Origin: a virus
UHGV virus genome: UHGV-1742202
Length of the DNA: 14,892 nucleotides
Strand: one strand, 5' to 3'
In this document: positions 9,001 through 12,000 of the stretch, piece by piece
Layout: each line of letters begins with the position of its first letter
Numbering within the stretch: the stretch's first letter is position 1
Position numbers: made by a program

Positions 9001-12000
9001 ATAAACCGAGCACTCACCAGCAGGTGCGTGGTGCGAAAATTGAAGACTTTGGCGAGGAGATTAAGGGCGCGGCAAAACACCGTTATGCGCAGCTTGCTGA
9101 AGCTATGGGTAAAACGCTGGAGGATGGGGAGTACGCGACACAACCACTGAGCAAACTGTTTCCAAAGCCGGATTATGCCCGTCTGGAAAAAGAAGGTGTG
9201 GATAGTGACACGCTGGCAATGATGGCGTTGTATCGCAGTGAAATTCCCACCAGAACAAGCCGTAACATGCAGAAATGGATCAGCATTGTTAAAAGCGGTC
9301 GCGAAGCTACTGCCGGTATGCTGGAGGGGAAAATTCCGGCAGCGAAACTGGCTGATATGATGGACAGTAAGCCGGGGTTACGGAGCATGTCGGATACCTG
9401 GAAACTGCTCCGTACGCTTTCTGCATTGCAGATTGATAAAGCATCCGGCTATCGTGTCAGGTCCGGTGTTTATTCGTTTGTCGGGGGAAAACGTTACGAT
9501 CCGCCGCAAATGATGTATTCGCTTCGTGATAGCAAGGGGCGCGACCTCTTTTTCTCGGAAAGCCGGGATGAGTTACTGAAAAAGGCGAAAGCATATTTCG
9601 ATGAACAAGGCTCCAGAGAAAGGGAAACGCCAGCAACCTCTGCTGATGACAGAATAACCTTTGACGTGTACCGGCATAAGGCCAGTGGCGACATTTTTAT
9701 CGGTTATGGCAAAAACAGGCAGAAACTGAAGGGCGGTTTTGAGTCTGCCCGTGATGCACATGATTATGTGCGCACACATCGTGATGAGCTGGTTAATCAG
9801 GTGAAGGCGCTGCGTGAAGTCTCGCGTGAGGAGCAGCGTAACGCCACCAACCGCGATCGTACCGGACCAGAACGCCGCAAGGGGGATGTTTCGCCGGAGC
9901 AGTTCAGTGATGCGTTTGGTTTTCGTGGTGTGCAGTTTGGTAATTATGTGGAAAGTCCGCGTCGTCAGGCTGATTTGAACCGGGCTTATGACTCGCTGCA
10001 TGACCTGGCTGACGTGCTGAACGTGCCGACAAAAGCGCTTTCTCTGAACGGTCGTCTTGGGCTTGCTTTTGGTGCCCGTGGTAAGGGTAAGGCGGCGGCA
10101 CACTATGAGCCGGGTGAGGTGGCAATCAACCTGACAAAAGGTAACGGACCGGGGGCGCTGGCCCACGAATGGTTCCATTCACTGGATAATTATTTTGGTC
10201 GTTATGATGTTTCCACTGACGGGAAGATCACGTCAGGTGGCGACTATATGACGGAAGCACAGCGTGCCGGGCGCGTATTTAAAGACGGCAGGTATGTTGA
10301 TGCGGAATATCCGGTACGTCAGGAGGTTTACGACGCGTTTAAAGGCGTGATGAAAGCCATTAACAGCAGTGACATGTTGCGTCGTTCTGAACGCCTGGAT
10401 GGCGTTCGTTCAAAACCGTACTGGTCAACGGATGTTGAAATGGCGGCGCGAGCCTTTGAGCGTTATGTTCAGGATAAAGCGCGTATGGCTGGCGTGGAGA
10501 ATGATTATCTGGTCAATATCCGTAAGGCACCTGAGCACAACACAGATAACACCTGGGCTTATCCGACGAATGCGGAACTGGATGGCGGTATTCGTGATGC
10601 ATTCGATCACCTGTTCAGTACGCTGAAAACCCGTGAGACGGACAAGGGCGTTGCGTTTTATTCCCGTAAGGGCGTGACCCGCACACCTGAAGGCAATCTC
10701 ATTTCGGATGTTAACCGCAGTGCGGAAGCCAAAGGCAGCCCGGTCCCGCAGGTTGAAGCGGTTGCCCGTGGCGTGATGAGTGGCATTAAGGACAGTGACC
10801 TGAAGGTCCGCGTGGTGAAGTCACAGAAAGAGGCTGAAGCGCTGGCGGGTGAATCGTTCGACGGTTACGGCAGGGTGCATGCGTTCTATCGTCCGGATAA
10901 ACGTGAAATTGTCCTGGTGGCGGATAACATCCCTGACGGGCGGACCGTTCGCGAGAAGCTGCGTCACGAGATTATCCACCATGCAATGGAGCATGTAGTC
11001 ACGCCAGCGGAATATCAGACGATTATTAAGACCGTGCTGAAAACCCGTGACAGTGATAACGCCACCATCCGTGAAGCCTGGCGTAAGGTTGATGCGTCTT
11101 ATGGTAAGGAATCACCGGAAGTGCAGGCGGGTGAATTTCTGGCACATATGGCGGAGAAACAGCCGAATAAATTTGTGGCGGCGTGGGAGCGTGTTGTTGC
11201 CCTGGTCAAAGGGGTACTGCGTCGCACGGGGTTACTGAAGCCGACAGAGCTGAACGATATCAGACTTGTTCGCGAAACTATTCGCACGTTAGGCCAGCGT
11301 GTGCGGGAAGGTTACACGCCGCGTGAGGATGGCGCTGGCGCATCGTCTCAGTACTCCCGTAGCGGTAAGCCTGATCCGTTCAAAGTGCCGGAAGGTGAGG
11401 GCGAGCGTTATCGTGATGACCTTGCCAGAATGATGAAGTCTCTGCGCTCAACGGATTTAACGGTAAACATCGGGCGTACGCCGCCGGTATTGCGTCACCT
11501 TGGCGCACCAGATTTGCCGCTGGTTATCTCCCGCGACACTGTGCGTAAGGCCACCAATGGTGTGAAACATGTGGTGCCGATGGATGTTATCGAGAGACTA
11601 CCGGAACTGATGCACGATCCGGATGCAATTTACCGCTCAGCGACAGAAAGAAATGCGGTTGTGATGCTGCTTGATGCCGTGGATAAAAATGGTGATCCGG
11701 TGGTGTCAGCGGTACACATGAAGGCTGTCCGGTCGCGTCTGGAAATCAACAAGGTAGCTTCTGTTTACGGTACAGAAAATGGAAAAAAACTGAAGAGTAT
11801 GGAAATGACCGGGTTAACGTTGTACCGGAGAGAAAAATTAAGCCGCGATAACCTTCTGCACAGAGGGCTCCAATTGCCCAAAGGGGAACATTCTTATCGC
11901 GGCTCTGCGGATAAAATACTCTATCCTGAAGATATTCGCAAGGGGCCGCATTACTCCCGTACCAGCAGTCTGACACCGGAAGAGACAATTGCATCGCGTT

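Follow-up and report, generated by a model that had tools for sequence, protein, structure and literature searches.

The question raised by this locus is whether a very long phage protein carries peptidases of its own and, if so, what they would cut. The locus is a stretch of 14,892 nucleotides from the virus genome UHGV-1742202 (the whole stretch is called the window below), in which one giant open reading frame (ORF) encodes a protein of 2783 amino acids (aa). The initial annotation, made from the DNA sequence alone, had pointed to two HExxH motifs in this protein, 267 aa apart, and read them as two zincin-like peptidase modules. We saw that the motifs belong to two different domains, both of which are almost certainly genuine zincin-type domains; judging from conserved residues and structural models, the domains are probably also catalytically competent. 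The target of such peptidases is harder to name. The explanation that we consider the best one, though held with somewhat less than even confidence, is that the product of the giant ORF is a packaged polyvalent protein whose two tandem zincin domains would cut their own polyprotein.

A regular-expression scan of the protein returned exactly these two HExxH motifs and confirmed their positions and spacing. Given the length of the protein and its Glu content (7.1%), one could suspect that both motifs arose by chance. Computed from composition (40 His, 198 Glu), the expected number of HExxH motifs is 0.041, so the rough value of ∼0.1 proposed earlier was conservative; in 20,000 shuffles of the protein the probability of at least one motif was 0.038 and of at least two 0.00085. 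Independently of the shuffles, chance is ruled out by distant homologues, which keep both motifs: the motifs are retained at 22-55% identity and placed on the expected helix of the zincin fold. Coincidence is thus an exceedingly improbable origin of this pair.

Neither motif was found inside a Pfam model; motif 1 is situated in the gap between the Pfam domains LPD5 and LPD1. The NCBIfam profile CLCA_X (NF041907) spans aa 1172-1427 of the giant protein (E = 3.8e-45, 154 bits, profile positions 3-245 of 250). As the domain is embedded in a giant protein, its score stays under the 260-bit cut-off used for naming whole proteins; domain 1 is a member of CLCA_X at the domain level and not an equivalog. 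The CLCA_X members are predicted zincin metalloproteases, mostly from phages and plasmids and often forming part of proteins that exceed 1000 aa (Lenart et al. 2013, PMC3650047). The supplementary set of that work includes residues ∼1195-1467 of the 2806-aa VT2phi_272 protein, together with 933W and VT2-Sa (PMC3650047); a zincin site at motif 1 had, therefore, already been predicted in print for the protein family from Shiga toxin (Stx) phages. Domain 1 shares with CLCA_X the whole profile and the conserved Asp after HExxH (HEWFHSLD in the giant protein); the spacing of this Asp is written HExxHxxxD in the paper, whereas our alignment of domain 1 gives HExxHxxD.

This alignment included 78 homologues, mostly stand-alone proteins of ∼335 aa, at 31-63% identity and with mean column identity of 24%. 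Residues H1274, E1275, W1276 and H1278 of motif 1 were invariant, and so were E1255, Y1359, E1365, A1368, R1369, F1371 and E1372; H1253 and D1281 were kept in at least 90% of the sequences. In the AlphaFold model of domain 1 (pTM 0.90) the elements of the zincin core follow each other in the order of a backing helix, a three-stranded sheet, the active-site helix with HExxH and a further helix with the Glu residues. The model matched the folds of anthrax lethal factor, MtfA and Pro-Pro endopeptidases (PPEPs), followed by those of neprilysin, PepO, thermolysin and botulinum light chains. The metal would be bound by H1274, H1278 and a glutamate of the later helix, most likely E1365 (with E1372 or D1281 as alternatives), and E1275 would act as the general base. 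The segment E1365-M-A-A fits the glutamate-helix rule of gluzincins, (E,H)xx(A,F,T,S,G) (PMC7213743). Since this invariant ExxA-type helix lies inside Pfam LPD1, and since core and LPD1 form one folded unit in the model, LPD1 seems to be the C-terminal, glutamate-helix part of the domain 1 peptidase and no separate domain.

Domain 2, which contains motif 2, had no sequence match in Pfam, NCBIfam or PDB. Pfam searches with domain 2 and 32 members of its family gave noise only, the best hit being Peptidase_M76 with E ∼0.05-0.2 around the motif, and a word-indexed protein search with domain 2 produced near-identical fragments only. An exhaustive HMMER search among 1.84 billion cluster representatives detected at least 374 homologues at E≤1e-3, nearly always as part of proteins 1000-6000 aa long. 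When 146 sequences were aligned (mean column identity 34%), the first His of the motif was present in 143, and the Glu and the second His in all 146; the H/E/H triad is thus invariant or nearly so in the families of both domains, in agreement with the idea of two zincin-like modules. The form of motif 2 needs a correction, though. The HExxH seen in the DNA is there, but the signature of the family is HExxxH: 134 of the 146 homologues have this spacing only, in the form HExxxH[H/Y], and a one-residue deletion leading to HExxHH occurred only in the clade of the giant protein (nine rows, the query and near-identical fragments among them). In the giant protein, accordingly, both readings can be made, H1541 having the canonical HExxH spacing with H1545 and the HExxxH spacing with H1546. 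Three homologues (P0113, P0133 and P0151) have Arg instead of the first His (REELxxH) with the rest of the domain kept; these may be inactive variants.

E1549 and H1550, offered earlier as additional ligands of motif 2, did not hold up: the column of E1549 is gapped in 69 of the 146 sequences and the column of H1550 is mostly Asn. The conserved candidate for the third ligand is E1597, 52 residues downstream, situated in an ExxA 'glutamate helix' with consensus QAEEVxAxxAE (E1597 is conserved in 146, A1600 in 135 and E1604 in 133 of 146 sequences); the segment E1597-F-L-A also fits the gluzincin rule. In domain 2, the metal would be held by H1541, by either H1545 or H1546, and by E1597, with E1542 as the base. 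The model of domain 2 (pLDDT 85) has the same order of elements as domain 1, a zincin core with the conserved Glu on the following helix. Predicted structures therefore put both motifs on helices inside zincin folds, as the initial annotation anticipated. The best fold matches of the domain 2 model were the non-catalytic N-domains of lethal factor and Certhrax; among viral models (BFVD), Foldseek found mainly other large phage polyvalent proteins. The features discussed here and below are collected in Table 1.

Table 1. Coordinates of the giant ORF, its domains and the putative active-site elements (nucleotide positions in the window; model helix and strand numbers are those of the domain models)
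Feature	Nucleotides	Residues (aa)	Strand	Remarks
Giant ORF	6345..14696	2783 aa	+	From ORF list and translation
LPD5	9483..9914	1047-1190	+	Pfam PF18799, E = 1.7e-43; directly 5' of peptidase domain 1
Peptidase domain 1	9858..10634	∼1172-1430	+	CLCA_X / phage-type polyvalent zincin; Pfam LPD1 appears to be its C-terminal part
Motif 'AAHYEP'	10101..10109	H1253-Y-E1255	+	Second sheet strand (model strand 93-96)
Motif 1	10164-10178	H1274-E-W-F-H1278	+	Context GALAHEWFHSLDNYF
Motif 1, extended	10164..10187	H1274-E1275-W-F-H1278-S-L-D1281	+	HExxHxxD; model helix 113-130, after three strands
LPD1	10395-10634	1351-1430	+	Pfam
Candidate glutamate helix of domain 1	10419..10460	Y1359...E1365-M-A-A-R-A-F-E1372	+	Inside Pfam LPD1; model helix 204-222
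Peptidase domain 2	10731..11294	∼1463-1650	+	Small gluzincin-like domain, putative member of HExxxH polyvalent-protein clade
Motif 2	10965-10979	H1541-E-I-I-H1545	+	Context KLRHEIIHHAMEH
Motif 2, extended	10965..10982	H1541-E1542-I-I-H1545-H1546	+	Readable as HExxH or HExxxH; model helix 78-97
Glutamate helix of domain 2	11124..11156	Q-A-G-E1597-F-L-A-H-M-A-E1604	+	Model helix 137-150
MuF_C	11562..11831	1740-1829	+	Pfam PF18819, E = 1.4e-17; downstream of peptidase domains
LPD38	13740..14357	2466-2671	+	Pfam PF18857, E = 3.4e-48; inside conserved C-terminal ∼900 aa

The origin of the two domains by recent duplication was considered and rejected, as hhalign aligned their strand-strand-HExxH regions at a probability of 2% only. 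The pair itself is not peculiar to the giant protein. Domain 1 was also present in 27 of 147 representatives of the domain 2 family, and in 23 of these 27 the separation of the domains was ≤35 aa; the tandem is, therefore, a recurrent module, the adjacent pair being seen in about a sixth of the related giants. LPD5 accompanies domain 1 in 16 of 28 giant homologues. The partners of domain 2 vary widely, as expected for a processing 'hub': among the 147 representatives, 24-39 share the C-terminal region, 20 have MuF-C and 40 have the N-terminal region.

Three giants from Vibrio phages were compared with the protein under study: L001 4849-12357 (2502 aa), L003 3157-12357 (3066 aa) and L002 2692-12180 (3162 aa). 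All three carry only domain 2, in its HExxxH form, and have neither LPD5 nor domain 1, which suggests that the middle parts of the giant proteins are exchanged as cassettes. Of these Vibrio phage giants, K250 and D60 have in common with our protein the N-terminal ∼250-300 aa at ∼30% identity, domain 2 at 33% and the C-terminal 900 aa at 41% (region 1878-2781 of the giant protein); D274 gave a weak match, limited to domain 2 and a portion of the C-terminal region.

Domain 1 also exists outside of any polyprotein, in stand-alone phage proteins of ∼335 aa with Pfam LPD5 and LPD1 that align over 92% of domain 1. Genes of such 335-aa proteins were observed in metagenomic phage contigs (L005 8001-9008; also L006) upstream of terminase genes and directly downstream of the Amidoligase_2, GATase_6 and GGACT genes, a neighbourhood that hints at a link of the domain 1 peptidase to peptide-tagging or amidoligase systems.

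The DNA around the motifs matched 186 phage records at 90-98% identity, nearly all of them Stx-converting phages of E. coli and Shigella, and the window is the late region of a phage of the 933W/phi24B type. Genes upstream of the giant ORF match PHROGs for an internal virion protein, tail fibre, Bor-like outer-membrane protein and Lom; PHROG 616 covers the giant protein from end to end. Its orthologue in phi24B is vb_24B_48 (89.4% identity over 2593 aa), with both motifs unchanged and the gene neighbourhood shared. The phi24B orthologue, gp47, was identified by mass spectrometry in purified virions; it was absent from the cryo-EM density, being seen neither in the capsid nor in the tail, and was proposed to be an encapsidated ejection protein (bioRxiv 10.64898/2026.04.10.717836). 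A literature search on virion proteomics of Stx phages yielded nothing besides this preprint.

The Pfam domains of the giant protein, LPD5, LPD1, MuF_C and LPD38, make up the signature of the phage 'polyvalent proteins' of Iyer et al. 2017, and we assign the product of the giant ORF to this class: four such domains and two zincin domains are combined within 2783 aa, the gene has a late, virion-gene setting (with synteny to the phi24B late region checked), and the presence of the orthologue in virions is known from the literature. The MuF-C domain was defined by Iyer et al. as a PBECR, that is, a predicted RNase-fold domain (PMC5512222); the MuF_C of the giant protein is thus predicted to be an RNase-fold module and no peptidase. 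The phi24B preprint names LPD5, LPD1, LPD38 and a 'MuF-C metallopeptidase' and does not identify the two zincin domains; 'MuF-C metallopeptidase domain' appears to be a mislabel.

The giant protein has no cysteine at all and, when scanned for transmembrane segments by the Kyte-Doolittle method (window 19, threshold 1.4), showed no stretch of strong hydrophobicity. Cys is rare among its homologues as well: the 124 homologous giants with a length of 1000 aa or more (326,856 residues) have 43 Cys in total (0.013%), 102 of the 124 have none, and the three Vibrio phage giants are likewise free of Cys. Some neighbouring ORFs of the window do contain Cys (8 in 567 aa, 5 in 208 aa). A cysteine-free protein fits unfolded threading through the tail and the oxidising periplasm. 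In the part encoded at 7700-9300 of the window (aa ∼450-990), located between the conserved N-terminal region and LPD5, the residues Pro, Glu, Gln, Arg and Asp make a fraction of 0.52-0.65, and Pfam had no domain match within aa ∼450-990; this part is probably a disordered linker and a candidate processing site.

How would the two domains be used? In the scheme that we prefer, the giant protein is a packaged component of the phage head and probably enters the cell together with the DNA; either while still in the capsid or once ejected, the two different gluzincin-type zinc-metallopeptidase domains would act as endopeptidases on the long linkers of their own chain, and the cleavage would free LPD5, the RNase-like MuF-C and the C-terminal LPD38 modules for separate action. 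That the polyprotein itself is the main substrate of the peptidases is a tentative proposition, to which we give a little less than an even chance. Self-processing is favoured because metallopeptidases (MPTases) are the hub domain of the polyvalent class, located between unrelated modules, and because P1 DdrB, an MPTase carrier, is cleaved before packaging (PMC5512222); with reference to DdrB, self-processing of polyvalent polyproteins was argued by Iyer et al. (PMC5512222).

Several observations weigh against this scheme. The N4 virion RNA polymerase, ArdC and TraC1 carry an MPTase and yet are delivered uncleaved (PMC5512222), and the protease site of ArdC is dispensable for its known phenotype (PMC7213743). 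The stand-alone proteins with domain 1 have no polyprotein to cut, which suggests action in trans. Then there are the kinship in fold of domain 2 with non-catalytic N-domains and the loss of its first His in 3 of the 146 homologues.

Action in trans is at the heart of a competing explanation, which goes back to the initial annotation, where host defence proteins or the cell envelope were named as possible targets. In this explanation the peptidases would be effectors that cut host proteins, such as defence, transcription or translation factors, after ejection. The existence of stand-alone LPD5/domain-1/LPD1 proteins in phage genomes agrees with it; also, two unrelated zincins in tandem suggest two specificities, the closest solved folds (lethal factor, PPEPs) belong to toxins or secreted proteases whose substrates are particular foreign proteins, and Iyer et al. 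listed this role as possible, with several MPTase carriers delivered uncleaved (PMC5512222). However, a pull-down with ArdC failed to yield a target that convinces, and the ArdC phenotype did not require the protease site (PMC7213743); processing is also the simplest explanation for the place of these domains as a hub between many modules of unrelated kinds. We consider the effector role possible but on the whole unlikely. Still less likely, below both self-processing and the effector role, is an attack on the envelope: the phi24B preprint proposed that the peptidase would breach it, by cutting peptide stems of peptidoglycan or envelope proteins, for channel formation. The orthologue was indeed put forward as an ejection protein forming a trans-periplasmic conduit (bioRxiv 10.64898/2026.04.10.717836), and the lack of Cys in the giant protein and in 102 of 124 giants would suit passage through the oxidising periplasm. 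But the preprint places its 'metallopeptidase' in MuF-C, an RNase-fold domain; the listed fold matches of both our domains are mostly protein endopeptidases, none of them described as a cell-wall hydrolase; the MPTase class is common in proteins of conjugative elements that act in the cytoplasm, and other polyvalent proteins use lysozyme or DD-peptidase domains against the envelope (PMC5512222).

One could also imagine that one or both domains are inactive zincin scaffolds with a role in binding or packaging, comparable to the N-terminal domain of lethal factor. The three domain 2 homologues without the first His would be in line with this, as would the Gly (G1596) that the clade of the giant protein has in place of the first Glu of a conserved EE pair, and the region of the N4 protein that contains its MPTase is needed for encapsidation (PMC5512222). 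Scaffolds, however, normally lose catalytic residues, and here the H/E/H and the distal E vary scarcely or not at all in spite of the low mean column identities of the two alignments; we regard the scaffold role as improbable. Finally, self-processing and action on the host could be joined in a two-step release, which as a whole looks rather unlikely: once the cysteine-free chain had passed the tail and the periplasm and refolded in the cytoplasm, one peptidase would cut the linkers and thus free the other one; the latter, acting alongside LPD5 and the RNase-like module, would turn on host proteins of defence or gene expression, and in the Stx-phage clade the step from HExxxH to HExxHH would modify the geometry of the metal site or the specificity. 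If this were true, Stx phages would need a druggable and mutable protease step to become established in a new E. coli host.

Coming back to self-processing by two zincins, we can compare the giant protein with systems already described. The MPTases of Iyer et al. share with our domains the setting, a giant phage protein of many domains whose gene lies among those of the virion. Polyvalent proteins have one to five MPTases each, and about 8% of the MPTase-bearing proteins carry more than one (PMC5512222). Domain 1 corresponds to the phage-type clade, in which strand 2 ends in a conserved His and position +3 after HExxH is an Asp (PMC5512222); another clade, with HExxxH (PMC5512222), corresponds to the domain 2 family, with the difference that in the Stx-phage clade domain 2 is one residue shorter and has HExxHH. 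LPD1, of unknown function in the description by Iyer et al., here appears to carry the glutamate helix of domain 1. The solved structure of the C-terminal metalloprotease domain of ArdC from plasmid R388 has its metal on H201, H205 and E229, with E228 supporting (PMC7213743); ArdC resembles the giant protein in being a gluzincin within a protein delivered with invading DNA, and its pair E228/E229 parallels the 'EE..A' helix of the domain 2 family. Likeness to lethal factor, PPEP-2/3 and MtfA is seen in the fold, at 6-15% sequence identity; these are secreted toxins or a cytoplasmic regulator-binding peptidase, unlike the protein studied here. No peptidase came up when PDB sequences were searched with the middle 900 aa of the protein or with the profiles of the two domains, and no Pfam or PDB sequence or profile match indicated membership in the lethal factor/ATLF-like group; the likeness is one of fold and likely chemistry and not of family membership.

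Stx-converting phages, whose largest virion protein is the giant protein, carry Shiga toxin genes from one E. coli to another. With the putative catalytic residues E1275 and E1542 placed, there are precise targets for mutants in which processing of the protein could be followed, together with the dependence of infection or of lysogen formation on this processing. Several annotations could be corrected as well: the RefSeq name says only 'LPD5 domain-containing', the 2026 preprint places a peptidase in MuF-C, and Pfam LPD1 is apparently the glutamate-helix part of a zincin domain. The presence of zincins in polyvalent phage proteins is already known (CLCA_X in 2013, MPTases in 2017), with domain 1 of the Stx-phage family listed. 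Modest novelty can be claimed for the residue-level definition and placement of domain 2 in the Stx-phage protein, for the one-residue change from HExxxH to HExxHH, for interpreting LPD1 as the part of domain 1 that bears the glutamate helix, and for correcting the domain label in the preprint. The result is a sound annotation that would not surprise a specialist.

Two more observations concern the window at large. An antisense ORF of 201 aa (9573-10178, minus strand) ends exactly at motif 1, and the phi24B record lists similar antisense ORFs of the giant gene as genes in their own right, vb_24B_50c being an example; such ORFs within the giant gene are probably artefacts of a long, G-rich coding strand. 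The G+C content at positions 3001-5000 is 0.43-0.44, compared with 0.52-0.58 elsewhere in the window; this segment spans the gene of the Bor-like outer-membrane protein, a gene of a membrane-associated protein and lom, and the dip is the usual pattern of acquired 'moron' genes.

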